Source of the DNA: Acidobacteriota bacterium | GTDB taxonomy: Bacteria; Acidobacteriota; UBA6911; JACQSX01 | NCBI GenBank assembly: GCA_036507075.1 | Contig: DASXQR010000061.1 | Location: 1 to 28,971 of the forward strand | Direction: 5' to 3' | Length of the DNA: 28,971 nucleotides | Shown here: positions 10,851 to 28,544 of the stretch, one piece after another | How positions within the stretch are numbered: position 1 is the stretch's first letter | Layout: every line of letters starts with the position of its first letter | Program-made: the position numbers and the translations under genes | The notes under the pieces: generated by a model | Seen by the model: the letters and a program-made list of their open reading frames with translations, nothing else | The model's database searches: none | Told to the model about the DNA's origin: nothing

Positions 10851-10883
10851 AGAGTTTTTCGTCAAGTTTTCCAACCAAACGTC

Positions 10884-11034
10884 CAAATGCGGATTTCGGA
10901 ATGCGGAATGCGGAATAGGTTTGTCGTCAGTTGTAGTCAGTTGTCAGTGTTTTACTTGTCAGTTGACAATGGACAACGAACAACGGACCACGGACAGCTT
11001 TATTCCCCATTCCGCATTCCGAAATCGGCATTTG
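10884..11034. repeat. Nested heptamer palindromic element, copy 3
   Basis: Outer (ATGCGGA/TTTCGGA)n and (TTCCGCA)n arms enclose inner (TTGTCAG)n and (CAACGGA)n arms. Confidence 0.85.
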
Positions 11035-11067: not shown

Positions 11068-12744
11068 TTAACTTCGACCGACCAGTCCCGCAACGGTGGA
11101 AATCAGTTCGGCCGGATTGACCGGCTTTGCCAGATGCACCTGGAATCCGGCCGTGATCGCCTGCAACCGGTGTTCCGGCCCGGCGTAGGCAGTGAGCGCG
11201 ACGGCCGGCAGATTCCCTCCGCGCTTCGGCCCGAGTGCTCGGATTCTCCGAATCAGCGTGTAGCCGTCGTTGTCGGGGATTCCTATGTCCGCCACCAGAA
11301 TATCCGGCTTGAGTTCTTCGACGGTTTTCAGCGCTTCCGCAGACGTTTTCACTACCTGCACGTTTGCGCCACGCTGTTCCAGGATGGTGGTGAACAACCC
11401 CAGCACGTCTTGTTCATCGTCGACCAGAAGAACCGTCACGCCTTGCAGCGAAATCGTACTGGGCGGCGCCAGCTTTTCGGCCGATTTAGACGCGCTGTTC
11501 GCGGAATCCGTGTCATGCGGTTTCAGCGGGATCGTCACGGTAAACGTAGAACCACGCCCTTCGCCGGCGCTTTCGGCGCGCACGGTTCCACCGTGCATCT
11601 CGATGATATTGCGCACCAGTGCCAGGCCGAGCCCGAGACCGCCATGCGACCTTGAATCAGCCGCATCCCCCTGGCGGAAATACTCAAAAATATGCGGAAT
11701 CAACTCCGACCGAATTCCAATTCCAGTGTCAGAGACCCTGATCTCCACTTCGGCATCCACGATACTTACGGACACGGTTACGAGACCGCCCTCCGGTGTA
11801 AACTTTATGGCATTCGACAACAGATTCAAGACAACCTGCTGCAAACGATCCGGATCTCCGGAGACAGTTTCCTGGATCGGCGCAAAGTTGGTTTCGATTT
11901 GAATCTTCTTCGCTTCCGCCGCGGGCCGAATTGCCTCCACCGCCTGTTCCGCCACGACGCTCGGCCGGATGGCCCGGAAATCAAGCCGCAGCTTCCCCGA
12001 GATGATCCTCGAGATGTCCAGGATGTCTGAGATCAATTGCGCCTGGACCTGGGCGTTGCGTTCAATAGTCTCGAACGCGCGCGCGGCGCGCTCCGGATCA
12101 AGCTTTCCAGTGCGAAGGATGTGAGCCCAGCCGAGGATGGCGTTCAGCGGCGTGCGCAGCTCATGGGAAAGCGTGGCAAAGAAAATATCCTTGGCCCGGT
12201 TGGCGTCGGCGAGTTTCTCGTTGGCAATCTGAAGTTCCGCCGTTCTTTCCGCAATCCGGTGTTCCAGCTCCCGGTTCAACTTTTCCAGCGTTATCCTCGC
12301 ATCCCGCTCGGCCAGCATCAATCGCCGGTGTTCGATTCCACGGCGCACGGTCTGCTTCATGTCATCGATGATGCAAGGTTTGATCAGGTAATCGTAGGCG
12401 CCTTGCCTCATGGCGGCGATTGCCGATTCCAGTGACGCAAATCCGGTTAGTACGATGGTAATGGTCAGGGGAAAGTGACGGCGAACTTCCGCCAGCACGG
12501 AAATGCCATCCGCTCCTTCCATGTGCAGGTCGGTGAGAACGACATCGTATTCGGTATCCTGGATTTTCGATATCGCGTCCGCGCCGCTCAGGGCTGTCTC
12601 GACAACCAGGCCGTCCTGACGCATCACTTCGCTCACGGTGAGCGCCACGCTTTCTTCGTCGTCCACAACCAAAAGACGCGCCTGCCGCCAGAAGACGTCC
12701 GCTCTGGCGTCAGGCATGTCTGCGTAACTGGAGAACAAACTCAT
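11068..12744 (-). CDS. Hybrid histidine kinase REC-HisKA-HATPase-REC
   Basis: REC1 (LVVDDE...LTDLHM...KP), H-box LSHELRTPL, N-box NLLSNAIKFT, DTGIG, GGLGLGL, and REC2 (LVDDE...ADIG...KP). The ATG at 12744 is preferred over the GTG at 12792, but the start is uncertain. Confidence 0.93.
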   Translation of the reverse strand: MSLFSSYADMPDARADVFWRQARLLVVDDEESVALTVSEVMRQDGLVVETALSGADAISKIQDTEYDVVLTDLHMEGADGISVLAEVRRHFPLTITIVLTGFASLESAIAAMRQGAYDYLIKPCIIDDMKQTVRRGIEHRRLMLAERDARITLEKLNRELEHRIAERTAELQIANEKLADANRAKDIFFATLSHELRTPLNAILGWAHILRTGKLDPERAARAFETIERNAQVQAQLISDILDISRIISGKLRLDFRAIRPSVVAEQAVEAIRPAAEAKKIQIETNFAPIQETVSGDPDRLQQVVLNLLSNAIKFTPEGGLVTVSVSIVDAEVEIRVSDTGIGIRSELIPHIFEYFRQGDAADSRSHGGLGLGLALVRNIIEMHGGTVRAESAGEGRGSTFTVTIPLKPHDTDSANSASKSAEKLAPPSTISLQGVTVLLVDDEQDVLGLFTTILEQRGANVQVVKTSAEALKTVEELKPDILVADIGIPDNDGYTLIRRIRALGPKRGGNLPAVALTAYAGPEHRLQAITAGFQVHLAKPVNPAELISTVAGLVGRS

Positions 12745-12796
12745 GGTGGTAACCTGAATCCATCCCGAAAGCGCCTGGCGGCGTCCCGGCACGGAA

Positions 12797-14974
12797 TTAG
12801 CCTTTGCCTTCCTTTTCCGACACGGCTGACTCCAGCGGCAGAATGATTTTAAAGGTTGTCCCCTTGCCTTCCGCGCTGTTCACATCAATCTTTCCGCCAT
12901 GGTGCGAAATAATGTCTTGCGTTACCCACAGCCCCAAGCCTGTGCCCTTCTTTCGGGTGGAAAAAAAGGGCTCAAAAATTCTCTCCAGGTCTGTTTCGGG
13001 AATTCCCGGCCCCGTATCACTGATTTCAACGGAGATTGACGGCTGGACCCACGGACTATGCCGTTTGGTTTTGATCGTTATATTACCATCACGCTCGATG
13101 GCCTGCTGCGCATTTATGACCAGGTTCAGAAATACCTGGCGCAACTGGTCCGGCATGGCATGAACTCGCGGCAAGTTGCCGTCGAGATCCTTTGTCAACA
13201 CGATATTGGATTGTCTGAGCTTTTTCTCCACCAGCACCAGCGTTTCTTCCAATAGTTGATTCACATCAACCCATTCGGTGCCGCCGGAGCGGCGCGCGAA
13301 TCCAAGCATCTGCCGGATCACATGCGAGACGCGCTCGGTCTCCTTCAACGCGATGTCCATGAAGCGCGCATTGGCAGCTTCATCTTTGCCGGTCTTCAGG
13401 ATGAAAAGGGAATTCTTGATCGCTTCCAGCGGGTTATTCACTTCATGCGCAATGGAGGCCGCCAGGCGGCCTACGGCGGCCAGCTTTTCCGACTCGAACA
13501 GTTGCTGCTCCACACGCCGGCGCTCTAGCTCGCGGATTTCCGAAAGGTCATGCAGCACCGACACGACCGCTGTCACTTGTTCCTTGGCGTCCAATACCTC
13601 CACCGAAGTGATTTCCATCGGCAGCTTGGCGCCCGTTTCCGGATCGATCAAATCAATTTCGGCCTGCCGTCCGGTGCGCATTTCCGAAGCGAGTCCCGAG
13701 AGAAAGGAAGTGAGCTTCACCGAATTAGTCTGCACCGCCGCAAGAGCGCGCGGGAAAGAAGCTTCGCGCTGCTTGAATAAAAGCTCCGCACGATTGTTGA
13801 ATAAAATGAAATTTCCGCCGCCGTCTGTCACCACGACCGGCTGGCCGACGTTTTCAATAATCAGATCGAGCCGGTCTCGCTCGCGGCGCGCTTCCGCCTC
13901 GGCCGTCTGCAACTTGGAGAAGTTCCCCGCCAGTTCCTCGTTCGCCCGCCGCAGATCGGTGACATCGCGAAACACCGAAACGAGGCCGACTCTTTCACCC
14001 TGCGTGTTGAACGCGGGCGTCGAGATAACTTCAAAATGGATATCAGAACCCTCCAGCGGATCGACCAGCGTCAAGTCGCAGCCGACGCCTTCGGTGGAGG
14101 AAACCGCCTCCCCTGATAAGTAAGCGGAGAAAAGCAGATCGTTCATTTTAAGGGCGCGCTTCTTTCCTTCGCTTGCGTCCACCGAGCCGCTGAACAGCTC
14201 CTCGGCCCGGCGGTTTTGCAGCAGTATTTCATTGTCCAGATTCGTCAGCACGATTGGATCGGCGACCGACTTCATGATCGATTCGACCCACTGGCGTTCC
14301 CGCTGCAGCTTATTGACGGTCGTCACCAGTCGGTCTGTGTGCATTCCGCTGGCGATAATTACCGCCACGCGCTCGGCAAATCGGGAAAGCAGGACCAGAG
14401 ACTCCTCGGCAGGCTGCCGTTCGGTCACAACATAAAGAGCGCCCACGCACTTGCTTTCCGGCTCCCAGAACTGCGGTATGTCCTTGGCGTCGAAATCGTC
14501 TCGGGTCTTTTCGGCAAACAACTGCCCGCTGCCAACTCCAGCCAGAGGCAGCACCAGCAGTTCCTTTTCGGGAATGAGCAGCTCGGAGTACGGGTCTCCA
14601 TCCTGATCCGGAGTGCGGCTGTACCATGACGGCTTTCCCTCATGCACCACGGAAACACCCGGCGCCAGGGAGTCGAGAGGCATCTCCAGCCGCTCTACCT
14701 TGCTGTTTTCGGGAAAACCGACCGCCATGCGCATCCTCAGCAAGGAACGGCGCTGATCGATCAGGGCCACGGCGGCTGGGGAAAAATGGAAATCAGCGCG
14801 AAGAGTGTCCAGGGCAAGAAAGAGGCGCTCGTCCAGGCTCCTGGCAGCGAGCGTTTGATTTGTGAGAACAAAGAGAGTCTCGAGTTGCTCGACGCTGAGC
14901 GGGCGCGGCCGGCCCTCCTGACTGGGGGTCGCCACCGATTGGCTGTTTTGGTTATCCAGGGCTCGGTTGCTCAT
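12797..14974 (-). CDS. Cytoplasmic sensor histidine kinase GAF-PAS-PAS-HisKA-HATPase (NtrB-like)
   Basis: SEKLAAVGRLAASIAHEVNNPL, QVFLNLVINA, DTGPG, FEPFFSTRKKGTGLGL. Two PAS repeats end in VSVFRDVT and VSVLHDLS. N-terminal GAF-like region and no TM segment. Confidence 0.93.
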   Translation of the reverse strand: MSNRALDNQNSQSVATPSQEGRPRPLSVEQLETLFVLTNQTLAARSLDERLFLALDTLRADFHFSPAAVALIDQRRSLLRMRMAVGFPENSKVERLEMPLDSLAPGVSVVHEGKPSWYSRTPDQDGDPYSELLIPEKELLVLPLAGVGSGQLFAEKTRDDFDAKDIPQFWEPESKCVGALYVVTERQPAEESLVLLSRFAERVAVIIASGMHTDRLVTTVNKLQRERQWVESIMKSVADPIVLTNLDNEILLQNRRAEELFSGSVDASEGKKRALKMNDLLFSAYLSGEAVSSTEGVGCDLTLVDPLEGSDIHFEVISTPAFNTQGERVGLVSVFRDVTDLRRANEELAGNFSKLQTAEAEARRERDRLDLIIENVGQPVVVTDGGGNFILFNNRAELLFKQREASFPRALAAVQTNSVKLTSFLSGLASEMRTGRQAEIDLIDPETGAKLPMEITSVEVLDAKEQVTAVVSVLHDLSEIRELERRRVEQQLFESEKLAAVGRLAASIAHEVNNPLEAIKNSLFILKTGKDEAANARFMDIALKETERVSHVIRQMLGFARRSGGTEWVDVNQLLEETLVLVEKKLRQSNIVLTKDLDGNLPRVHAMPDQLRQVFLNLVINAQQAIERDGNITIKTKRHSPWVQPSISVEISDTGPGIPETDLERIFEPFFSTRKKGTGLGLWVTQDIISHHGGKIDVNSAEGKGTTFKIILPLESAVSEKEGKG

Positions 14975-15044
14975 CGTCCAACGTCAGAAGCCCGTTCCAG
15001 GCGCCTCCCCCATCAGGCGCCGGTGTGCGGGCAACGCATAACCA

Positions 15045-15329
15045 CTACTTTCTTTCCACTTCTGCGCCGACGCGGCGACGCGGTTCTGCTTCGAGGGTCT
15101 CGGCGCCCGGTGTGAGCGCGGGCCGTGAAACCGCGGGCGTGAGACCGACAGCTTCCGCGTACTTCAGATAGGTATCGATGGAAGCCACGACTACGCGAGC
15201 CTCTATCGTGATCAGATCGATTCCGACCAGCGAAATTCTTACCCACGCGTCTATTACAATGCCCTTGTCCAAGACGCGATCAAGAACATCAATCAGGCTG
15301 GATCCGCCAGGAGCTCGTTCGACTGCCAT
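15045..15329 (-). CDS. gvpA: Gas vesicle major structural protein GvpA (94 aa, with C-terminal extension)
   Basis: MAVER...[54 protein letters not shown] is the GvpA signature. True ATG at 15329 behind a purine-rich RBS. Confidence 0.96.
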
Positions 15330-15474
15330 TCTCTCTTCCTCTTTCCCGATAATTAGTGGTTTTGTGCCAAACCTCGCTAAAGCCCGCTGATACCGGCCCG
15401 GTATTGCCGGTACTTCAGGCATTTGGATACACGATTAAGCTACCCGGCCGAAACCATCATCCAGCCGGGAAATC

Positions 15475-15867
15475 CTATTTATTCTTCCCGACTCGGCCGC
15501 TCTTCACGCCGGCGCGCGCTCTGCCGGCGGCACCTTTTATACCCGTTATACCCGCAGTCGATTCGCCGAGCCGTTTGATTTCCCTTTCCAGTTCAGCGAG
15601 CCGCGTGCGCAATTCCTTGTTCTCGGCGCTGATCCGCTCCGTCCGGGCCGTAAGATTCGTGTCATAGCGCCACCAGTTAAGACCGATCTGCTCGGCCTTA
15701 TCGATAGAGCAAACCAGCAGGCGAATTTGAAGCGTGAGCAGCTCAACGTTGGCGAGCGACACTTTGATGTCACCCGCTACCACCAAACCTTTATCCAAAA
15801 TCCGGTCCAGCACGTCCACCAGCCCAGGTGGCCGTGCCGAGATTAAGCTAGTTCTTTGGTCTGACAA
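15475..15867 (-). CDS. gvpJ: Gas vesicle protein GvpJ (GvpA family)
   Basis: LVDVLDRILDKGLVVAGDIKVSLANVELL..IRLLVCSIDKAEQIGLNWW followed by a coiled coil (ENKELRTRLAELE). TTG start at 15867 or 15885. Confidence 0.88.
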   Translation of the reverse strand: MSDQRTSLISARPPGLVDVLDRILDKGLVVAGDIKVSLANVELLTLQIRLLVCSIDKAEQIGLNWWRYDTNLTARTERISAENKELRTRLAELEREIKRLGESTAGITGIKGAAGRARAGVKSGRVGKNK

Positions 15868-15888
15868 CGGTTCGCCCTTTCCCAAGCA

Positions 15889-16242
15889 TCACAGCAAGCG
15901 GCCCACAGGGCCGAGATCGAGATTGAGATCCTCGTCTGTAAGTCCAAAACGGTCTTTCAATTCGTCCATCTTGGCTTCCAGCTTCATTAAAGCGAGACCC
16001 AGGTCTTCCACCTGCTCGGGCGACAGCCCGCCGCCTTCCACGCGACGCAGCGCCTGTTTCTCCAGCAATCGCCGGATAAACTCAATCAGCGTCAAAACCA
16101 GCTTGGCCAACCCCTGCTCTACCGATTGCGCATCAATATTAATGCGTTCCGGAAGAGCATCCGCCACGCGGCGCAATTCCTTGGCAAACTCCTCTGGCTG
16201 TGTAGTCTCTATTTCAGGCCGGCTCCGGGAATGACGCACCAT
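15889..16242 (-). CDS. gvpK: Gas vesicle protein GvpK
   Basis: GLAKLVLTLIEFIRRLLEKQALRRVEGGGL..EQVEDLGLALMKLE...FGL...DLNLDLGPVGRLL. Confidence 0.95.
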   Translation of the reverse strand: MVRHSRSRPEIETTQPEEFAKELRRVADALPERINIDAQSVEQGLAKLVLTLIEFIRRLLEKQALRRVEGGGLSPEQVEDLGLALMKLEAKMDELKDRFGLTDEDLNLDLGPVGRLL

Positions 16243-16286
16243 AGGTTGAAGTTGAACGCTCAGAATATTCTTAATTTACCAGTGTT

Positions 16287-16994
16287 TCAAGAGTGAAGCT
16301 GTGCGAAATGATACGGCGCCCAGGGTCCGCTGCTCATGATGGACAAATCAGGTCGCCTCTGACGAGCAAGCTCAAGCATAGCGCTGAACGCTTCAACCTG
16401 GCCTCTGGGAACAAGAAACCGAACCGCCAGCAGCGAGTTGGAAGAATGCGTGGAAACGACGGAATCCTTTGCCATTGTTGAGAATTCCTTGGATATCCAA
16501 CCGGCGAGTTCGCTTGCAAGGGGCGAATTTATCACCGCAGCGCCATGCTCGACCCGCTTCCTGGCCAGGAAACGGGTGCCAGGACCGGATTCCTCCGGCA
16601 GTACGCCATTGTCATGAGATGGGCGCGCAAATCTCGACGAATCAGTTCTTACGAGGATTTTGACATTCATCTGAACGCAGCCTGACACGTGCTCCAACAG
16701 GGATAGCAGCCTCTGGCTGTTGGTTTCGACGTAGCGCTTTAAGTTCGCCCCCAAAGTGATCATTCCGAACCGGAACGGCAGCGGGGTTACCTTTTGCATC
16801 ACTGCAGAAACTACGTGCTCATGCGCAAAGATGTTTTCCCTGCTGGCGGGAACATAAGGGTTGTCCAATTCCGAAACAACAGCAGTGAGTACGCCGCAAT
16901 TATTCAGCACAGGCATGGTCTGGGCGACTCCCGGAACAGAGGCTATCGCGGCGGGATCCAGATCGGCGGCAAGGCAATAGGCATAAACTTTCAT
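16287..16994 (-). CDS. GvpL/GvpF-family gas vesicle protein
   Basis: VYAYC, AHEHVV, LPFRFG, GPGTRFL and C-terminal SGPWAPYHF. Confidence 0.9.
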   Translation of the reverse strand: MKVYAYCLAADLDPAAIASVPGVAQTMPVLNNCGVLTAVVSELDNPYVPASRENIFAHEHVVSAVMQKVTPLPFRFGMITLGANLKRYVETNSQRLLSLLEHVSGCVQMNVKILVRTDSSRFARPSHDNGVLPEESGPGTRFLARKRVEHGAAVINSPLASELAGWISKEFSTMAKDSVVSTHSSNSLLAVRFLVPRGQVEAFSAMLELARQRRPDLSIMSSGPWAPYHFAQLHS

Positions 16995-17032
16995 CGGGTT
17001 CTGATTGCGGGGTTCCGATTGTCGGTAGTGCT

Positions 17033-17260
17033 CTAGTTTGAATTTTCAATTCCTAACCCCTGGCGCTTCGCCAGGATCTGGTCAATGGTATCCACCGAGC
17101 CGAGGAGCACGTTTAAGCCAACGAAAACCAAGTCGATATCCGCCACCGAAATTGTGATCTCGCCGGCAATAACCAGTCCGCTCGTCAAGACGTGATCGAC
17201 TGTTTCAAGCAGCGTCAACTCGCTTTCCTCATCGAAAATATCAATTCTTTCTTCGGCCAT
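17033..17260 (-). CDS. Small GvpA-family accessory protein (GvpS/GvpM/GvpJ-like)
   Basis: TLLETVDHVLTSGLVIAGEITISVADIDLVFVGLNVLLGSVDT is a divergent GvpA-family core. Confidence 0.88.
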   Translation of the reverse strand: MAEERIDIFDEESELTLLETVDHVLTSGLVIAGEITISVADIDLVFVGLNVLLGSVDTIDQILAKRQGLGIENSN

Positions 17261-17264
17261 AAGA

Positions 17265-18152
17265 TCAGGGCTGAATGAAATTATATGCGGGCCAAGGTCC
17301 GGTGAGCTCCAGGCTGAAACCCGCAGTCTGCAAGGATTTCAGTTGATTACGGGCAGCAGCCTGAAAATGTTCGAAGCGGCGCCTGCGAACCAGGAACGCA
17401 AAGCGGCCCACTATTCTTCCCTGATCCCCGGATTCCATTTTCAAAACGCGCAGTCGCTTTGCGGCGTCACTGGCGCCCAAAAGCCTGTCTTCTATGCGGT
17501 CAAGTACCCGTCCGATTTCCAGACGCGCCTCCCGGGCTCGGAAGCTGTCGATTCGCTTGCGCTCCAGATAGGACTGGCCGGGAGATGCTGCGGCGGCTTT
17601 GTTCTCAAGCCCGGCCGTTTTATGGCCGGAACGAAGAATGCCGGCGCGCAGTTTCGATGCGTCAAAGTAAACATTCACTCCCCATTCCTCTCGACCTCTC
17701 AAGCGTTCCAGCACGGGAAGAAGGTCATCAGTCCGTTCTCGCAGCATTTTTCCAAGCCGCATACGATCCAGATAGAGGGTGCCAAATCGAAGGGGGATAA
17801 CGCTGATCACAGAAGCAAAGTGTTGCACCACTTTTTCATGGCGTATCGCCCGGGTGGCCGTCCAGGCAGGATCCGCCAGGTTGACTTCGAGTTCATTCCG
17901 TCCGTATTCGCGCAACGGGACGGCGCTTACCACCGCCGCCAAGACCGGCTGTGAGTTGTCAGCCTTACCGGACCGGGCTGCGACCAGTTCCAGTCTGCTT
18001 CCCGGCTCCAGCGAGTCGGGTAGCGTCGCAGTGAAATACTCCGATAGGTCACCCTGCAACCCAATGCAGTAAACATAGATGGCGCTGGCAGGTCTTTTTT
18101 TTCGCGTTCTGCGGGGTGGCGTGGGCTGTCGTCTGCCTTTTGGCTTACGCAT
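17265..18152 (-). CDS. gvpL: GvpL/GvpF-family gas vesicle protein (GvpL-like)
   Basis: IYVYC, NLADPAWTATRAIRHEKVV, IPLRFGTLY, EEWGVNV, SPGQSYL and LTGPWPAYNF. Confidence 0.85.
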   Translation of the reverse strand: MRKPKGRRQPTPPRRTRKKRPASAIYVYCIGLQGDLSEYFTATLPDSLEPGSRLELVAARSGKADNSQPVLAAVVSAVPLREYGRNELEVNLADPAWTATRAIRHEKVVQHFASVISVIPLRFGTLYLDRMRLGKMLRERTDDLLPVLERLRGREEWGVNVYFDASKLRAGILRSGHKTAGLENKAAAASPGQSYLERKRIDSFRAREARLEIGRVLDRIEDRLLGASDAAKRLRVLKMESGDQGRIVGRFAFLVRRRRFEHFQAAARNQLKSLQTAGFSLELTGPWPAYNFIQP

Positions 18153-18216
18153 GTCTGCAACTCAGATTTTCAACATGAAAGCCATTCTAACAGGTTTGTG
18201 AAGACGGCCCGTTGCA

Positions 18217-18251
18217 TTCACCGCCGAGTCGCAAGGCGTCTTTGCGGTGAA
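18217..18251. repeat. Short TTCACCGC...GCGGTGAA palindromic element inside the gvp operon
   Basis: 8-bp inverted termini. 18210-18224 is the exact reverse complement of 24436-24450. Confidence 0.75.
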
Positions 18252-18296
18252 GGCAGTGTGGCGAATCGGCAGACGGTAGATTGGAACATCACGTCC

Positions 18297-20381
18297 TTAC
18301 AGGCGTGCACGTGTTTTTTTTCTTTCAGCGCGGGGGCCTTTGACTCCGTCTAAACCCACAGCCCTCCATTGCCTGAAATGCCGCTGCAAAAGATCAGGGC
18401 CTCTTACTTCACCCGGCTGTTGCGGCGCGATAAATAACTGCAGCGCAGGGAATGCCTTCCGAAACTGACCGGTTATTGTGTCCTGACCCTGACGACGAGC
18501 GGCGCAGAATTCACATTTTGCGGCCGCTTCTTCAGGAATGACATTATTGATGATCAGGCACCGCATGGGGGTTTTGAGTTTCTTCAATGCCTCCGCCAGT
18601 CGGACTGTTTCCTCCAAGCTCATTTTTTCGGGGATTGCGACGCCCACAAATTCGCAGCAATCCGCGTCGGTCAATAACGCGGCCACTCTCTTGATGCTTT
18701 TCGAAAGCGAGACCAGCTCTTCGGCCAGCGAGCGCCATCGGACCACATTTTTATATTTCAAGAGTAGACGGATAAATGTGTGCACCCACGATATGGCAAT
18801 CGAAGGTATCTGCAGAAATCGCAGCAGGTGTCCCGTTGGAGCGGTGTCCAAAATGGTGACGGAATAAGCGTCTTGATCCATCAGGTCGCTGATCGCGCTC
18901 AAAGCCATGATCTCGTCGATTCCGGGAGGCGCCAGCGACACCAGTTCCCGCAGCGAGTCGCGCTCGAACTGGATCTGCCAGCGCGAATCTCCTGTCAGCG
19001 ACTCGAATACCTCATCGGTCCAGGCCCGATAGCGCTCCTTCACCTCTTCAAACCGTTTTTCCGGATTCATCTCCATGCCGTCCAGATTGGATAAGCCGGC
19101 AAGCCCGCTCTTTTTCTCTCCAATCGCCTCTGCGAAACTGTCCGACAAGGAGTGGGCCGGATCGGTGGATAAGATAAGCACCCGCGCTCCAGGATTCTTC
19201 TGCGCCAGTGCCAACGCCACGGAAGCGGCGGCCGTTGTCTTTCCCACGCCGCCTTTGCCTCCAAAGAGAAGCAGTTTGCGCAGTGACAAGGGAAATTCCT
19301 CCCGCGCCGGCGCACTTCTTTCAAAATCGCGCAGCGCCGCTTTTTGCGCCTTCCCCGAATCAACGGAAACGGGCAGGTCGGATGTGGATTCATTCCAGGC
19401 AAAGCCGGCGAAAAGCCGCAGCAAGGCGGGCCCGCGCAGCTCCTTTTCAAAAAGGGGAACCCGGTGAGTGCGAAGATCTCCAAAGCGCTTGGCGATCTCC
19501 GACAGCCAGGGCTGCTGGCTCGCAACGCGCGCCCGGCAATAAAGGCAATCCGCGTGCTCCTGCTCGACGCGATTTACGATCAAGTCCGTCACCGGCACCG
19601 ACAGGCGCCGCAGTGACTGCAGATATCGCGTCGATTCCTCCACGCTCAACGCTTCCGGGATGGTGACAAGGGTGAAGGCGCACTGTTTTGCGTCGTAGAG
19701 CATTTTTTTCACGCGCTGGACACGTTCTGTCAAATCGCGCAGAAACAGGTCCACTTCGTCTTCCCGCACGCGATGCCCGCGGGTGAGTTGCCGCACCATG
19801 AAGCGATGTTTTTCTTCAATCCGATCAAGGGCGCCGATCCATCGGGCGAAAACATCGGGAAGACTCAGCATGCGGGCGGTATGTCCCGTAGGTGCTGTGT
19901 CGATGACGCAGCGTGAAAATCGGGCGCTACTGTCCGCCTCGCTCAATTCAAACAGCGCCATCACTTCGTCCATTCCGGGAAGCGACAGGTCCAGCAGTTC
20001 GGCGATGTCTTCTTCATCGAGCAAAGTTCCGCGATTGGCAATTTCGGCCAGGATGGCGCGATGTTTTTCCCTGAATTTCTCGAAAGCGGCGGGCGCGTCC
20101 ATCTGGCGGGCCATCAGGCGCGCCCTGCCTCGTCGGGCGATTTCCACGAGTTCATCGCCGATGCGTGTTTCCAGGCTGTCGGACAGAGAGTGGGCGGGGT
20201 CGGTGGAAAAGAGCAGAATCTGTTCTGCTCCCTGCGCGATGTCCAGCAGCGCCAGCGCGGCCGCGCAGGCGGCGGTGGTTTTGCCCACGCCGCCTTTTCC
20301 TCCGAAGAACAGATATCGCGCAGGGGGAAGATGGACTTCTACTTTTGAGGGGTATCTGGTCCGGGAGGGGGCGGCTGGCAC
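18297..20381 (-). CDS. Tandem two-domain ArsA/Get3(TRC40)-family ATPase
   Basis: Each half has GGKGGVGKTT, STDPAHSLSD, PG(M/I)DE, DTAPTGH, IPE..S.EE and a CxxC.AR motif (CLYCRAR, CEFCAAR). GTG start with GAAGGA RBS, 12 nt after gvpG. Confidence 0.93.
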   Translation of the reverse strand: MPAAPSRTRYPSKVEVHLPPARYLFFGGKGGVGKTTAACAAALALLDIAQGAEQILLFSTDPAHSLSDSLETRIGDELVEIARRGRARLMARQMDAPAAFEKFREKHRAILAEIANRGTLLDEEDIAELLDLSLPGMDEVMALFELSEADSSARFSRCVIDTAPTGHTARMLSLPDVFARWIGALDRIEEKHRFMVRQLTRGHRVREDEVDLFLRDLTERVQRVKKMLYDAKQCAFTLVTIPEALSVEESTRYLQSLRRLSVPVTDLIVNRVEQEHADCLYCRARVASQQPWLSEIAKRFGDLRTHRVPLFEKELRGPALLRLFAGFAWNESTSDLPVSVDSGKAQKAALRDFERSAPAREEFPLSLRKLLLFGGKGGVGKTTAAASVALALAQKNPGARVLILSTDPAHSLSDSFAEAIGEKKSGLAGLSNLDGMEMNPEKRFEEVKERYRAWTDEVFESLTGDSRWQIQFERDSLRELVSLAPPGIDEIMALSAISDLMDQDAYSVTILDTAPTGHLLRFLQIPSIAISWVHTFIRLLLKYKNVVRWRSLAEELVSLSKSIKRVAALLTDADCCEFVGVAIPEKMSLEETVRLAEALKKLKTPMRCLIINNVIPEEAAAKCEFCAARRQGQDTITGQFRKAFPALQLFIAPQQPGEVRGPDLLQRHFRQWRAVGLDGVKGPRAERKKTRARL

Positions 20382-20393
20382 GGATCCTTCCGC

Positions 20394-20720
20394 TCAGCGT
20401 TCGCCGGGTTCCCATGGACCACCCTGTTCGTCTCCTCCGGCTTCAATGACAATGGAAGACGAATCGGCGGTGTGTACCTGCTGCAGCATTTCGAGCTGCC
20501 GCGCCTTGATCGCCCGCAATCGAGCGAATAACTCGGCTTCGCGTTCGGCGAATTCCTCTTCTGAGATTTCACCCAGCTCGAGGCGCATTTGCAGTTCGAG
20601 CAACTGCTCCTTGATTACAGTGTCATCATTCAGTTCCTGGTCCGCAATTTTCTGGATTTGCCTGAGAATGAATGTGAAGCCGTTGACGGGAGCCAACAGC
20701 AGGTCGTCTATCAGGAACAT
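20394..20720 (-). CDS. gvpG: Gas vesicle protein GvpG
   Basis: MFLIDDLLLAPVNG...I...ADQEL.D...IKEQLLELQMRLELGEISEEEF..RE.EL..RL, directly after gvpF. Confidence 0.93.
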   Translation of the reverse strand: MFLIDDLLLAPVNGFTFILRQIQKIADQELNDDTVIKEQLLELQMRLELGEISEEEFAEREAELFARLRAIKARQLEMLQQVHTADSSSIVIEAGGDEQGGPWEPGER

Positions 20721-20723
20721 CGG

Positions 20724-21554
20724 CTATTTTAGAACGGCTTCTGAAGCCGCGTCGCCGCGCTCCAGCTTCAGCCGGATGTGCACGAAGTTGTAAGGCGGCC
20801 AGGGACCGCTGTATTTGAAAGACAGCTTCCCCTCGTACTTGCCGGCGATCTCCTTAACTTTTTGATCGAATTCCGCTTCGCGCTGCCGCTCCACAAGGAA
20901 CGCGGCGTTCATGATCATCTTGTCCCCGATCGGTTTGTTTGCCCGGGATGCCACGGCGGTGTCGCGCAGAATGGAATACACTTCTCGCACATAAGCGTCG
21001 GATTTTTCCGTCAGTGTTGTTTCCACCAGCCGGCCCAGTTGCATGCGCGCAAAATAGGTCGATCCGCTGGCCGAGGTTATCTGCTCTTTCAGGTGCCGAA
21101 TCTCCTCGTTTTCCTGTTCGATTTCGGCGATTACCTTGTCCCGGTCCCAATTCACCTTCAGCCCGAATTCCACTTTGCCTTCCATTTTTGCAAACACATC
21201 GTGCAGGGCGTCGTAGGTGCCGCGCATCAATTCGATGATGTCCTGTTCGGTGCGGAACAGCGCGCCAAATGCCATCGGCAATACGGTAAATTCGCGCATT
21301 ACCGTCTCATTCACCTGTTCGTGGGCAAAAACGTTTTCGCGGGTCGGATCGTAAACGATCAAGGGGGTGTTGGAAACGACTGCCGCCAGTCCTTCGTGGT
21401 GCACGGTATAAACTTCATCGCCGCGACCGCCGATTCCGATCGGCCCAAACGAACGTGGTTCCTTGGATTCGATAATGCAGTAAATGTACTTGCCCTCCGC
21501 CGGCGGGGGTTGTGAAGCTTCCGGATTGAGAGCGGGGTTCTTCTCTGTCGACAT
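20724..21554 (-). CDS. gvpF: Gas vesicle protein GvpF (GvpL/GvpF family)
   Basis: GKYIYCII, LAAVVS, PTRENVFAHEQVNE, TVLPMAFG, GKVEFGLKV, MIMNAAFLV, YSGPWPPYNFV. ATG at 21554 with GGAG RBS. Confidence 0.93.
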   Translation of the reverse strand: MSTEKNPALNPEASQPPPAEGKYIYCIIESKEPRSFGPIGIGGRGDEVYTVHHEGLAAVVSNTPLIVYDPTRENVFAHEQVNETVMREFTVLPMAFGALFRTEQDIIELMRGTYDALHDVFAKMEGKVEFGLKVNWDRDKVIAEIEQENEEIRHLKEQITSASGSTYFARMQLGRLVETTLTEKSDAYVREVYSILRDTAVASRANKPIGDKMIMNAAFLVERQREAEFDQKVKEIAGKYEGKLSFKYSGPWPPYNFVHIRLKLERGDAASEAVLK

Positions 21555-21586
21555 TCTCTCTCCGCCTTGGATCGGTCCGGATCTCG

Positions 21587-21616
21587 CGATCAAAACCTCT
21601 CCGATCAAAACCTCTC
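21587..21616. repeat. Perfect tandem 15-bp direct repeat (CGATCAAAACCTCTC x2) in the gvp leader
   Basis: 21587-21601 and 21602-21616 are identical. Confidence 0.9.
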
Positions 21617-21630
21617 AGGGAGTCTTTTGG

Positions 21631-21660
21631 ATTGTACGTGGCAAAGCCAGCCCATGTCAA
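21631..21660 (-). promoter_or_regulatory. Sigma70-type promoter for the gvp operon
   Basis: Minus strand TTGACA-N18-TACAAT, with the -10 about 77 nt upstream of the gvpF ATG. Confidence 0.72.
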
Positions 21661-21828
21661 AGCCCGTGCGCTTGTCGATCGCGATCACAACCGCCGGATT
21701 ATGCATAAACTGAAAGAATTGGCCGCTGATCTACCCCGAAAACACGGATTAGTATCAGCGTCGTCCGCGTAAATCGGCGGCTGGTTCCTGCAGTTTGTGA
21801 ATCACTCAGCAGGCGTGTCTGCCCGCAC

Positions 21829-21856
21829 TTGACCCGCGAAGGGAATTTCCTATAAT
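21829..21856 (+). promoter_or_regulatory. Sigma70-type promoter for the divergent di-haem protein gene
   Basis: TTGACC-N16-TATAAT. Confidence 0.65.
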
Positions 21857-22068
21857 GGGGCCAATTCCGATTTTAACTTTTCACAATTCCGGCAAGTCGC
21901 GCGCCTGCCTGTCCTGAAGAAGGCCGGGAACAGGAGTAGCTTAGGGTGACGATCGAGCGGTTTGCTTGGTCAACGCGCGCGCGATAAAGGGGCCCAAAGG
22001 AGGAAGAGGCTCTTTCAAAGAACAACGCCAGTGTTTCAGTTTGAGTTTTCCAAACCATGGAGATGATT

Positions 22069-23328
22069 ATGGAGAAGAAATTTGCATTTAATCGCGGCGA
22101 GCGGCTTTCCTGGCGCGTCGGCGCGCGATCGCGATCGGAATTGAGAGTTTTAAGAGTGCTTATGCTGTTTTTGCTGGTCGTTGCGTTGGGCTTGCCATTC
22201 ACCGGGTTTACGCAGACAGCGATATCTGAGGCGCCGGCCGGTTTTGACAATCAGACCAACGGACTTCTCACCAATATCCAGTTCAAGAAAGCCAAAGCAA
22301 AATTCGAGGAACGGGAGGAAATAGAAGAGGGGCTCGGACCCGTGTTTAACGCGCAGTCCTGCGGGGAGTGCCACCAGACCCCGGTGACCGGCGGTATCAG
22401 CCAGATTACAGAACTGCGTGCGGGCCACTACGATGAACTGACCACGCACTTCACCGATCATCCCGGTGGTTCGTTGATCAATGACCGTACGATTCACGGC
22501 TCCATTCAGGAAACCGTAATGTACGGCAACGAAGTCCGTACCTTCCGCACGTCGCTGAACACATTGGGCGACGGATTCGTGGAGTGCGTCGATGACAATA
22601 CACTGATTGCGATTTCCAACAATCAACCGGCGGATATGCGTGGCCAGGTCATTATGGTGCCGGTACTGGAGGCCAACAGTGCGCTGCGCGTGGGGCGTTT
22701 CGGATGGAAGAACCAGCACGCCAGCCTGCTTTCGTTTTCAGCCGACGCCTATCTCAATGAGATGGGGATCACCAGTCCTTTACAGCCGACCGAAAACACT
22801 TCTAATGGCCGGTCCCTGTCAGACTTCGACTCAGTCCCCGATCCCGAAGATGAGGGCGATGATGTGCGGGCGTTTGCAGCCTTCATGCGGGCTACCAAGG
22901 CGCCCCCGCGCGGCGCCGGCGACACAGGTGCTGGTGCTGCTTTGTTCAACAGTATAGGGTGCGCTACATGCCACACTCCGACGATTGTAACGGCGCCCCC
23001 CGGCACGGTAATCAATGGCGGAACCTTCGTTGTCCCTCCGGCGCTGGGAAACAAAGTGATACATCCGTTCGGCGATTTTCTGCTTCACGACGTCGGCACC
23101 GGCGACGGCATCGTGCAGAACGGAGGTCAAGCGACGAGAAACAAGGTGCGTACCGCGCCACTGTGGGGTCTTCGAACGCGCAGTCGTCTCATGCATGATG
23201 GAGAATCGCTGACATTTGTCGACGCAATTGGACGGCACAAAGGCGAGGCGAACACTGTGAGGCTGCTTTTTGAGGGGCTGACCTCATTTCAGCAGGAGCA
23301 ACTGTTGCAGTTCCTGGGAACTCTCTGA
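22069..23328 (+). CDS. Di-haem oxidoreductase-family (DHOR-like) exported c-type cytochrome
   Basis: GLGPVFNAQSCGECH and IGCATCH haem c motifs, VGRFGWK, AYLNEMGITS, FLLHDVG, RTAPLWGLR, MHDG, and an N-terminal hydrophobic export segment. Alternative starts are 22057 and 22063. Confidence 0.88.
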   Translation: MEKKFAFNRGERLSWRVGARSRSELRVLRVLMLFLLVVALGLPFTGFTQTAISEAPAGFDNQTNGLLTNIQFKKAKAKFEEREEIEEGLGPVFNAQSCGECHQTPVTGGISQITELRAGHYDELTTHFTDHPGGSLINDRTIHGSIQETVMYGNEVRTFRTSLNTLGDGFVECVDDNTLIAISNNQPADMRGQVIMVPVLEANSALRVGRFGWKNQHASLLSFSADAYLNEMGITSPLQPTENTSNGRSLSDFDSVPDPEDEGDDVRAFAAFMRATKAPPRGAGDTGAGAALFNSIGCATCHTPTIVTAPPGTVINGGTFVVPPALGNKVIHPFGDFLLHDVGTGDGIVQNGGQATRNKVRTAPLWGLRTRSRLMHDGESLTFVDAIGRHKGEANTVRLLFEGLTSFQQEQLLQFLGTL

Positions 23329-23365
23329 AGTCGCAAGACTCAACGGCGGGCGCTGGCGCGCTCAA

Positions 23366-23572
23366 ATTCACCACCAAGGCTTAGCGCGGCAAAGCTGCAA
23401 CCATCAAGGAGAGACGGCCTGAGGGCCGTCTCTCTGCGGTGCCATGGTTAGTGGTACAGGATTGTCCGTTGTCCGTGGCCCGCTGTCAGTTGCCAGTCCT
23501 AACGACCAGTATGCAAGAACCACTGACAACGGGCCACCGACAACGGACAACCCTGTGTCCTCTGCGGTGAAT
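23366..23572. repeat. Composite palindromic element between convergent genes
   Basis: Outer ATTCACC...GGTGAAT ends. Inner 29-bp heptamer-built inverted repeat at 23462-23490/23522-23550 (27/29 match). Confidence 0.8.
23409..23434. terminator. GC-rich hairpin, possible terminator between convergent genes
   Basis: Perfect 11-bp stem GAGAGACGGCC-tgag-GGCCGTCTCTC. There is no clear U-tract. Confidence 0.4.
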
Positions 23573-23611
23573 CATTTTCACAGAGTCTCACGCCAAACCC
23601 ACGGCCAATTT

Positions 23612-23854
23612 TCAGGCCGCAAGCGTCGAATCCGAATCAGAATCGCAAACCATCGCGGGCAAACGGCGAATGGCGACGATATGGTTGGATGTCGCCCAGG
23701 CGTCATAGGCTGCGGCGGCACCGTGAATGCCGGCTTGGGCCCAATTCTTTCGCCGCAGGTTGTAAATCACTCCAAGCATGTGCAGGCTGGCTAGAGCACC
23801 GTGCACGAAAATCGCCAGCGACTGAAGATCTCGTTCACCCTTTAGTACTCTCAT
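23612..23854 (-). CDS. Small hypothetical membrane protein (80 aa, His-containing helices)
   Basis: GGAG RBS 5 nt before the ATG and two apolar helices separated by RRKNW. No family recognised. Confidence 0.65.
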   Translation of the reverse strand: MRVLKGERDLQSLAIFVHGALASLHMLGVIYNLRRKNWAQAGIHGAAAAYDAWATSNHIVAIRRLPAMVCDSDSDSTLAA

Positions 23855-24352
23855 ATTGCTCCAAGGTCCGGATGCGTCCCAGAGGATCGAATTCGTTCGA
23901 TCCTGTTCACCATCTCCGGAAAACCCTGCAGCTTATTCTGCTCCCCTTATCCCGGGGCTGCGGTTATCAATGTCACAGATGCCGGTAACAGTTTGCCTCA
24001 TCAGTGAAGTCGAAAGCGTCACCGGCTTGACACTGTTGTGAGACTCCACGCATCGGTCGGCTCCAGGGCACCTTGCCTCTGACCTGTGAGATGAAGCGGA
24101 TTCCTCAAAGTTTCAATTTGAAGACCGCTGTTACGGTTTCCTGTCGCTGCACTGACAGCGCGCTGACAGTGATCGGAGTCACGCCGGTGGCCTTTCGACA
24201 GGAAGATTTGGGACTTTTTGTTCGTGAGCGTAGAGGTGGTCGTTGCCGTCGATCGTTGACGTGCACGTCACCTCTGTCCAAATTAGCTTCAGGATTACAA
24301 GAAGAAGGGCGTGTTGCCCAAATCGGAACAGAATGGAGACGACTACATTATG

Positions 24353-28350: not shown

Positions 28351-28462
28351 ACCGCAGTCACCTGTCCTTCAATATCGAGCCTGCAAGAACAGCAAGTCCG
28401 ATGCGAAACGCCCGAGTCAGAGCACTGGTAACTCTTGCCCCTGTCAACTTGTAACTTGAAAG

Positions 28463-28544
28463 TGCGAAAGGGGGGAGTCGAACCCCCACGGGTTTCCCCA
28501 CTGGATCCTAAGTCCAGCGCGTCTGCCATTTCCGCCACTTTCGC
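28463..28544 (-). tRNA. tRNA-Leu (anticodon TAG)
   Basis: GCGAAAG/CTTTCGC acceptor stem, GGCAGA D-loop, anticodon arm CTGGA-CTTAGGA-TCCAG, long variable arm GGG-AAA-CCC, GGGGG-TTCGACT-CCCCC T-arm and discriminator A. CCA is not fully encoded. Confidence 0.97.

Follow-up and report, generated by a model that had tools for sequence, protein, structure and literature searches.

Gas-vesicle gene (gvp) clusters have been known since 2010 to carry homologues of the arsenic pump ATPase ArsA. Castillo & Saier (2010, PMC2963123) described ArsA homologues with two domains that are encoded, together with Hsp20, in the gvp clusters of four phyla and are devoid of the ArsA cysteines, as well as an acidobacterial cluster with the ATPase and L/F, J, K and M genes and without N; they proposed that GvpN and the ATPase energize distinct steps of vesicle biogenesis. 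Farkas (2019, PMC6593721) called tandem forms with the TRC40 insert and a CxxC motif unique and uncharacterised, possibly general chaperones, and scored Groups 7 and 8 in Table 1 as lacking the Get1/2/4-binding residues. Here we analyzed such a gene in a 28,971-nucleotide stretch of DNA (the window; contig DASXQR010000061.1, assembly GCA_036507075.1) from a bacterium of the phylum Acidobacteriota. The clade to which its product belongs is inherited together with the gvp genes, and a chaperone appears to be its most likely function. Judged by sequence, the window ATPase meets the description of the gvp-linked tandem Get3 homologues. The members of Castillo clusters 4 and 6 are likewise tandem proteins of about 620-690 amino acids, lack the ArsA cysteines and are encoded in gvp clusters; acidobacterial Aba1, from a cluster listed with two L/F genes, J, K, M and no N, is likened to it by description alone. 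Farkas Groups 8 (with CxxC) and 7 (cyanobacterial, without CxxC) have two domains per chain with the TRC40 insert in both, and were also matched by description. The gvp-linked forms of Castillo & Saier are two-domain, with neither a Get3 groove nor CxxC mentioned in the available text, whereas single-domain and split forms were found here in the same clade or context. The Farkas groups come from Myxococcales, Proteobacteria and Cyanobacteria, with no gas-vesicle link in the accessible part of the paper, whereas the present set also includes Acidobacteriota, Chloroflexota, Rokubacteria and single-domain Chlorobiales proteins. A first-pass annotation of the window, made from its letters, had placed the novelty in the function and in the absence of GvpN; both the gvp link and the GvpN-less setting are already in Castillo & Saier. 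A literature search found no study that unites the gvp link with the tandem Get3 forms or tests their function; subscription papers and supplements may bear on this.

The ATPase gene starts with GTG behind a GGAAGGA-like ribosome site, and its product consists of two PF02374 domains sharing 33% identity. Its features are the following.

18297..20381, minus strand: tandem Get3/TRC40-like ATPase of the gas-vesicle-linked clade, 694 amino acids (open reading frame, profile and tree)
19377..20336, minus strand: N-terminal ATPase domain (P-loop 20277-20300, STDPAH 20190-20207, DTAPTGH 19881-19901)
18360..19301, minus strand: C-terminal ATPase domain (P-loop 19236-19259, STDPAH 19152-19169, DTAPTGH 18828-18848)
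19536..19547, minus strand: CxxC 1, CLYC (C279, C282), putative zinc ligands, aligning with the CxxC of archaeal Get3 3ug6/3zq6
18504..18515, minus strand: CxxC 2, CEFC (C623, C626), putative zinc ligands (sequence motif)

Both halves carry a deviant Walker A motif (P-loop GKGGVGKT), the catalytic switch I Asp within STDPAH, and the DTAP switch II. All these motifs agree with the first-pass annotation, as does the CxxC pair, for which it gave coordinates that span CxxC alone, with x-AR just past them. The long helical segment that it had noted after DTAPTGH was recovered in both halves of an AlphaFold2 model built from 135 sequences (mean predicted local distance difference test score 91.5, predicted template modelling score 0.92), namely helices 165-199 and 209-229 in the N half and 516-542 and 550-571 in the C half, where the helical insert is 9 residues shorter. 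Catalytic residues are retained in 132-135 of the 135 aligned relatives. In the same alignment, helices 7-9 have 21 of 65 and 26 of 56 columns that are at least 80% hydrophobic, and it is these conserved columns that suggest a hydrophobic groove. Among the matches listed, single halves, mostly the C half, superpose on Get3 chains with Z scores of 24-27 and a root-mean-square deviation (rmsd) of 2.3-3.1. The superposition is that of a modelled closed pseudo-dimer and is not proof of function.

The protein passed the Get3/ArsA superfamily profile TIGR00345 (453.5 bits, cut-off 135). By its sequence, it is Get3/TRC40-like in having the TRC40 insert with extended helices 7-9; the segment from DTAP to the next strand comprises 75 and 66 residues in the two halves; it measures 59 and 44-50 residues in ArsA, and five single-domain proteins of archaea have 72-80. 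It is not Get3d, considering the NF050088 score (90.9 vs 325 bits), the absence of an HSP20 domain and the separate clade. The cut-offs for mycobacterial BagA and BagB were missed as well (79.9 vs 400 and 105.4 vs 521 bits), and the GvpN profile TIGR02640 gave no match. Among 8000 scored homologues, 5893 had E<=1e-50, and the closest ones are labelled Pyrinomonadaceae, Blastocatellia or Acidobacteriota. For phylogenetic analysis, 139 ArsA-family proteins from the fetched loci, including that of the window, yielded 189 domains; one fragment and two that lacked a P-loop were dropped. FastTree united 95 domains, from loci linked to gvp or from genomes carrying gvp genes, in a single group with support 90. 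In the IQ-TREE analysis (LG+G4, subsample of 46 domains), the gvp-linked group received 99/99, ArsA 100/99 and the alpha-crystallin Get3 (Get3d) 100/100. Within the gvp-linked clade, N halves (93/97), C halves (96/98) and Chlorobiales single domains (100/96) form subclades whose mutual branching this tree does not resolve; it is unrooted, contains no eukaryotic Get3 and does not discriminate fusion from the loss of a half. The tree, a comparison of the kind proposed in the first-pass annotation, sets the gvp-linked clade apart from both ArsA and Get3d.

Among characterized proteins, archaeal and eukaryotic Get3/TRC40 (3ug6, 3zq6, 2woj, 4xtr) resemble the window ATPase in fold, catalytic motifs, helices 7-9 and CxxC position. 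They differ in acting as homodimers and in delivering tail-anchored proteins to membranes, and their insert is longer than that of the window C half (72-80 vs 66 residues). The top sequence match in the PDB (5zme, E 2e-76) is Chlamydomonas ArsA1 (5zme/5zmf), which is also a single-chain Get3 pseudo-dimer with hydrophobic clients. This algal protein is reported to bind tail-anchored proteins (PMC11170914); as described, it lacks CxxC and its clients are organellar.

It is extremely unlikely that the gene encodes an arsenite/antimonite pump ATPase lying in the operon by chance. Database names of homologues read 'arsenite-transporting ATPase', and the best whole-chain fold match is the closed ArsA 9nbw (Z 33.4, rmsd 3.0, 534 residues), because the tandem layout is alike. 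Indeed, the arsenic pump ArsA (E. coli 1f48; L. ferriphilum 9nbw) shares this layout and the closed pseudo-dimer geometry, but it differs in three metalloid cysteines, short inserts, ars operon partners and its separate clade. The window protein scored 214.8 bits against the ArsA cut-off of 650 (TIGR04291), and forcing its halves into the ArsA group was rejected by the approximately unbiased test (p=2.1e-5). Metalloid cysteines are found in 0/95 clade domains vs 23/23 ArsA domains; the window ATPase has LSLPGMDE and LAPPGIDE where ArsA has SGACTxEI and SPCTEEI (equivalents of C113/C172/C422). ArsB and ArsD had no tblastn match in the host genome, in which only distant ArsR- and ArsC-like matches on other contigs were found; no Acr3 was found in the window, where the search for it was made. 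The view that the protein is Get3-like rather than an arsenic ArsA was thus upheld by the tree, the profile score and the cysteines, and, as also reported before, no ars gene was present among the 27 open reading frames scanned in the window. A plasmid search gave no match to the ATPase at 1e-30, while at 1e-8 it gave 1175 records, and the 40 among them that were listed are annotated as arsA or ArsA/GET3-family ATPases or lack an annotation.

Two Chloroflexota tandem proteins (L042:9168-14342 and L171:6694-9381) were tried as clade members and rejected, as they group with ArsA and carry ArsA cysteines. Their inserts are longer (61 and 57 residues); they have the helix-6 cysteines, no C172-like motif and two flanking YlbF genes, and L042 also contains arsR, arsD and a RACo gene. 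They possibly represent an ArsA subtype. A single-domain match in genome G661 was likewise discarded, falling outside the clade.

Conservation in gvp clusters, on which the first-pass proposal depended, was borne out by the single clade in the tree, by genome counts and by metagenome loci. In the cyanobacterial phylum, GvpK was found in 14 of 111 genomes; precisely these 14 have the tandem ATPase, and none of the other 97 does. The ATPase is encoded within 8 kb of gvpK in 11/14, and in 3/14 the fetched flanks contain no gvp gene. Chlorobiales have a single-domain form of 305-325 amino acids, present in 18 of 19 gvpK-positive genomes. Fifteen of its loci were fetched (L175-L189), seven with gvp genes and eight without. 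Ten of the 22 gvpK-negative Chlorobiales genomes were tested, and the form was found in one, which carries gvpA-family genes. Among 401 genomes of the window's phylum, 23 were GvpG-positive and 18 of these have the clade ATPase (one truncated, one cut by a contig end); the other five gave weaker matches only, and the four placed in the tree all fall outside the clade. The single-protein search of the 401 genomes, in which two candidates were scored per genome, missed 7 of the 18 clade members, which the examination of loci revealed afterwards. These co-occurrence counts come from related genomes, which are not independent, and from many metagenome assemblies.

An ATPase-centred test in metagenomes recovered the clade motif in at least 121 stretches, of which 79 remained after removal of one duplicate and of 41 stretches that had no flank. 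Among the matches listed, a gvp gene lies no more than 6 kb away in 74 of the 79 loci, and gvpG is directly upstream of the ATPase in 55 of the 72 with an upstream flank. The test is biased to the non-cyanobacterial part of the clade, since the clade motif and the gvp profiles were built from loci of this analysis, mostly non-cyanobacterial. As a control, among 80 ArsA-family loci five had gvp clusters, and all five were clade members. The tight coupling to gvpG seen earlier in the window is real: gvpG ends at 20394, 12 nucleotides upstream of the ATPase. Of 27 tandem loci from outside the cyanobacteria, 19 have gvpG upstream of the ATPase, and it is the commonest upstream neighbour outside cyanobacteria and Chlorobiales. 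The trio gvpF-gvpG-ATPase is kept together without the other genes in L033, L035, L040 and L134; its action without GvpA was considered and rejected because all five genomes checked contain GvpA-family genes.

Several individual loci may be mentioned. In L265 (4339-6441), a clade member without a flanking gvp gene lies among glycosidase, acetyltransferase and subtilase genes, and in L258 (223-2451) another one lies near Hsp70. In L172 (441-5196, Myxococcota), the tandem ATPase is directly followed by an 874-amino-acid homologue of the major vault protein (PF11978, PF17795). In L032 (4732-7547), a truncated tandem ATPase of 410 amino acids overlaps a 585-amino-acid open reading frame with two GvpL/F domains, reflecting a frameshift or an assembly error.

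The earlier concept of a single-chain, zinc-hinged protein fits the window ATPase, a tandem with both CxxC motifs and their putative zinc ligands, but not the clade as a whole. Both motifs are present in 98 of the 135 aligned relatives, one in 8 and none in 29, a sequence pattern that is more than chance. Outside cyanobacteria, CxxC was found in 19/27 N halves and 14/25 C halves, while it occurs in 0/26 cyanobacterial halves and in 3/15 Chlorobiales single domains. Split two-gene forms (L286, L291), a duplicated tandem (L278) and a multiply broken copy (L255) were all found in gvp clusters. The zinc hinge and the fusion are therefore optional, because the clade includes single-domain Chlorobiales, split metagenome and CxxC-less cyanobacterial members.

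The first-pass annotation had further proposed that the ATPase replaces GvpN, to be checked by an anti-correlation with gvpN, and this was not confirmed. In 82 gvp-positive genomes, the numbers with both ATPase and GvpN / ATPase only / GvpN only / neither were 2/16/3/2 in the window's phylum, 14/0/0/0 in cyanobacteria, 18/0/1/0 in Chlorobiales (one GvpN, split across two contigs, counted as present), 2/2/8/6 in Chloroflexota, 1/0/5/1 in Myxococcota and 0/0/1/0 in Pseudomonadota. The pooled counts (37/18/18/9) give an odds ratio of 1.03 with p=1.0, GvpN being present in 37/55 genomes with the ATPase and in 18/27 without it, and nine gvp genomes lacking both; no mutual exclusion is seen. GvpN is needed for the growth of bicones into cylinders (PMC4982088), and a role of the ATPase as a substitute motor for this step in GvpN-less clusters is very unlikely. 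It is the sole ATPase of the window cluster, and within the phylum GvpN is absent from 16/18 ATPase-positive vs 2/5 ATPase-negative genomes (Fisher p=0.048, related genomes), but this value stems from one widespread reduced cluster type. The ATPase and GvpN occur in the same cluster in L028, L029, L039, L155-164, L168 and L175-181, and clusters of the same order without either, in which gvpG runs straight into gvpL, were found in L135, L140, L174, L209 and L210. Although GvpN is also an ATPase of gvp clusters, it is an AAA+ protein of a different fold, and it often co-occurs with the Get3-like clade: they are found together, in the cluster or the genome, in 14/14 cyanobacteria, 18/19 Chlorobiales and some Acidobacteriota, Chloroflexota and Myxococcota.

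GvpN-type clusters have further components. A CDC48-type double AAA ATPase is encoded in 28 of 37 fetched GvpN loci vs 0 of 27 gvp loci of GvpN-less genomes (regions <=20 kb). The order in Chlorobiales is gvpJ-Hsp20-ATPase-CDC48-gvpF/L, and in 4/8 unlinked Chlorobiales loci the single-domain form lies near CDC48. All ten gvp-linked cyanobacterial loci fetched contain CDC48, directly downstream of the ATPase in five with coordinates and divergent in L155. In L156, L157, L158, L161 and L164, the gvp cluster extends beyond a gvpW-like gene, in the same direction, to the tandem ATPase gene and then a CDC48-like gene of 614-652 amino acids. The published cyanobacterial gvp gene lists available to us omit both genes, and the table of Pfeifer ends the cluster at gvpW. 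Two other loci (L028:15016-19234 and L029:14516-19677) contain Hsp20/GvpH, CDC48, gvpF/L and gvpF/L genes, in L029 preceded by a sigma-54 activator, an order matching gvrA-gvpH-gvpZ-gvpF2-gvpF3 of Serratia. From this synteny, Serratia GvpZ is probably a CDC48-type ATPase and not an ArsA homologue, so the earlier caveat about gvpZ as an ArsA-annotated gene is probably a red herring.

A chaperone role of the ATPase is plausible. The evidence leans slightly towards an accessory ATP-gated holdase acting at the hand-over between GvpF/GvpG and GvpA, a remnant of the Hsp20-Get3-CDC48 set of GvpN-type clusters. Such a protein would be an accessory and non-essential chaperone of gas-vesicle assembly. 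It is well supported that the two halves of the protein make up one pseudo-dimer within the chain, in which both nucleotide sites are complete, helices 7-9 are extended as in Get3 and an arsenic site is missing. By analogy with Get3 biology, ATP binding would close the halves around the hydrophobic groove and hydrolysis would reopen it, while the CxxC pair could bind one zinc as an optional clamp. The ATPase would hold a hydrophobic segment of a newly made Gvp protein, either the GvpG N-terminal segment or a GvpA/J/S monomer, and release it at the hand-over to GvpF/GvpG or GvpL, resulting in less aggregation. The client and this step are deduced from the gene order and from the published network in which GvpA is joined with GvpF and GvpG in a chaperone-like subnetwork (PMC11445434); Iburg (2024) has GvpF and then GvpG acting as chaperones of GvpA. 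As partners of the ATPase, GvpG and the GvpF/L family are favoured by the gene order over GvpA/J/S. A complex prediction for ATPase residues 18-675, GvpG 1-82 and zinc scored 0.25/0.26 against a mark of 0.32, and it counts neither way. The ATPase would work beside GvpN, not in its place, and in GvpN-type clusters it would be part of the Hsp20, Get3-like and CDC48 set. The window copy would be the sole remaining member of this set, and therefore small bicones or nothing would be expected rather than long cylinders.

A number of observations weigh against a holdase of this kind. The clade is dispensable, being absent from 27 of the 82 gvp-positive genomes, and among the matches listed 5 of the 79 metagenome loci are without gvp genes nearby. 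In GvpA, hydrophobicity peaks at residues 24-42, a stretch that is a beta-hairpin in the shell, whereas Get3 grooves bind helices. Vesicle formation by the host is a prediction from its genes. A M. xanthus member was reported to be unlinked to gvp genes (Castillo & Saier 2010, PMC2963123). Vesicles are built in mammalian cells by gvpA and NJKFGWV alone (PMC10344784), and in current models GvpF, GvpL and GvpH already hold chaperone roles (PMC9501494). In the literature, no report of client binding or ATPase activity was found for the clade.

Instead of shielding shell proteins, the ATPase could be a nucleotide switch or scaffold with folded GvpG or GvpF/L/W as its binding partners; it would set the time or place of nucleation, or control how much of these partners is available. 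Its nearest neighbours are GvpG and GvpF/L-family genes, and the N and C halves, being separate ancient subclades with unequal inserts, fit a dedicated asymmetric partner. However, the conserved hydrophobic pattern of helices 7-9 and the CDC48 and Hsp20 neighbours fit client handling better, and the neighbours vary by lineage (Hsp20 and CDC48 in Chlorobiales), which makes this role rather improbable. A general stress holdase, possibly redox-switched through CxxC as yeast Get3, is about equally unlikely; it would be co-regulated with gvp genes or would clear toxic Gvp aggregates together with CDC48, without delivering clients. Consistent with this, the ATPase adjoins CDC48 away from gvp genes in L167, L182, L183 and L185, one clade member lies near Hsp70 (L258), and general chaperoning was what Farkas (2019) proposed for these groups. 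On the other hand, the near-exclusive occurrence in gvp-carrying genomes is unexpected for a general chaperone, all 26 cyanobacterial domains lack CxxC, and the host genome has no CDC48.

The gas-vesicle cluster of the window consists of nine co-directional minus-strand genes, from gvpF through gvpA, followed by two histidine kinase genes. Besides the ATPase, they are as follows.

21631..21660, minus strand: sigma-70-like promoter match TTGACA-18-TACAAT (11/12) upstream of gvpF, consensus only (4 sites found vs 3.8 expected)
20724..21554, minus strand: gvpF (GvpL/GvpF family), 276 amino acids from an ATG with a ribosome site (profile match)
20394..20720, minus strand: gvpG, 108 amino acids, hydrophobic N-terminal segment (profile match)
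17265..18152, minus strand: GvpL/GvpF-family gene, 295 amino acids (profile match)
17033..17260, minus strand: GvpA-family accessory gene (S/M-like), 75 amino acids (profile match)
16287..16994, minus strand: GvpL/GvpF-family gene, 235 amino acids (profile match)
15889..16242, minus strand: gvpK, 117 amino acids (profile match)
15475..15885, minus strand: GvpA-family accessory gene (J-like), 136 amino acids (profile match)
15045..15329, minus strand: gvpA, major shell protein, 94 amino acids (NF006874, 120 bits, cut-off 100)
12797..14974, minus strand: PAS-domain histidine kinase, probable regulator, adjoining gvpA in related clusters (domains and related clusters)
11068..12792, minus strand: receiver-kinase-receiver hybrid histidine kinase, probable regulator (domains and related clusters)

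The hydrophobic N-terminal 19-mer of GvpG has a Kyte-Doolittle value of 1.64 (GvpA 1.83, GvpS-like 1.98), and no clear C-terminal anchor was found in any Gvp protein of the window. GvpN is missing from the whole genome, which is 95.7% complete (the top TIGR02640 match reached 30.5 bits, cut-off 266.8), no CDC48 over the cut-off and no gvp genes outside this cluster were found in the host genome, and the latter holds no second real ArsA-family gene. The cluster is of a reduced type, lacking GvpN, CDC48 and Hsp20 and keeping the Get3-like ATPase; other reduced clusters lack the ATPase as well. A PAS histidine kinase gene lies right after gvpA in reduced clusters L026, L027, L030, L031 and L034, often with a receiver protein; these kinases and those of the window (11068-14974) are reminiscent of Serratia gvrB/gvrC, required for vesicle production. 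The cluster (15045-21554) has the same gene order as L027 from genome G318 of another class, with 57% identity for the ATPase and 83% for GvpF, while in genome G001 of the same family (L026) the ATPase is only 29% identical and the gene order is different. This pattern suggests horizontal transfer or differential loss.

A repeat scan of positions 14900-24100 revealed the internal duplication of the ATPase gene and one inverted repeat outside the operon, and nothing else. This repeat (23456-23556; 35-nucleotide arms, 91% complementary) is intergenic, downstream of a di-haem oxidoreductase gene. An open reading frame for 80 amino acids at 23612-23854 (minus strand) has a good start and a hydrophobic core and no Pfam or NCBIfam match. 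Near the contig end, a bacterial lysyl-oxidase-domain protein (PF01186; 26692-27561, minus strand) and tRNA-Leu (28462-28544, minus strand) are encoded. On the other side of the cluster, an 1808-amino-acid secreted-type BNR/sortilin beta-propeller protein with Ig-like domains (5460-10886, minus strand) is encoded beside a LacI regulator.

Since thousands of homologues exist, the value of the finding lies in the family rather than in the window copy. The clade may represent an unnamed dedicated assembly factor, a bacterial Get3 serving a protein organelle, which together with GvpF/G supplies the shell with hydrophobic subunits and together with Hsp20 and CDC48 provides a eukaryote-like quality control, while the standard reconstituted operons omit the ATPase and CDC48 genes; we regard this wider picture as tentative, somewhat short of an even chance. 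The co-inherited Get3-like ATPase bears on how hydrophobic shell proteins avoid aggregation and on why clusters fail in E. coli. There, 10 of 15 natural gvp clusters fail and the A. flos-aquae cluster gives detectable vesicles, too few for phase contrast (PMC10344784), and the Anabaena PCC 7120 cluster is reported to yield irregular vesicles. The ATPase deserves testing at the bench, since in the usual listings and reconstructions the operon of cyanobacteria stops just before its gene. If the proposed role is true, adding the ATPase and CDC48 genes would raise the yield or reduce toxicity in E. coli, and mammalian cells may compensate with their own TRC40 and p97. A gas-vesicle role would also supply a function for the bacterial tandem Get3 proteins.

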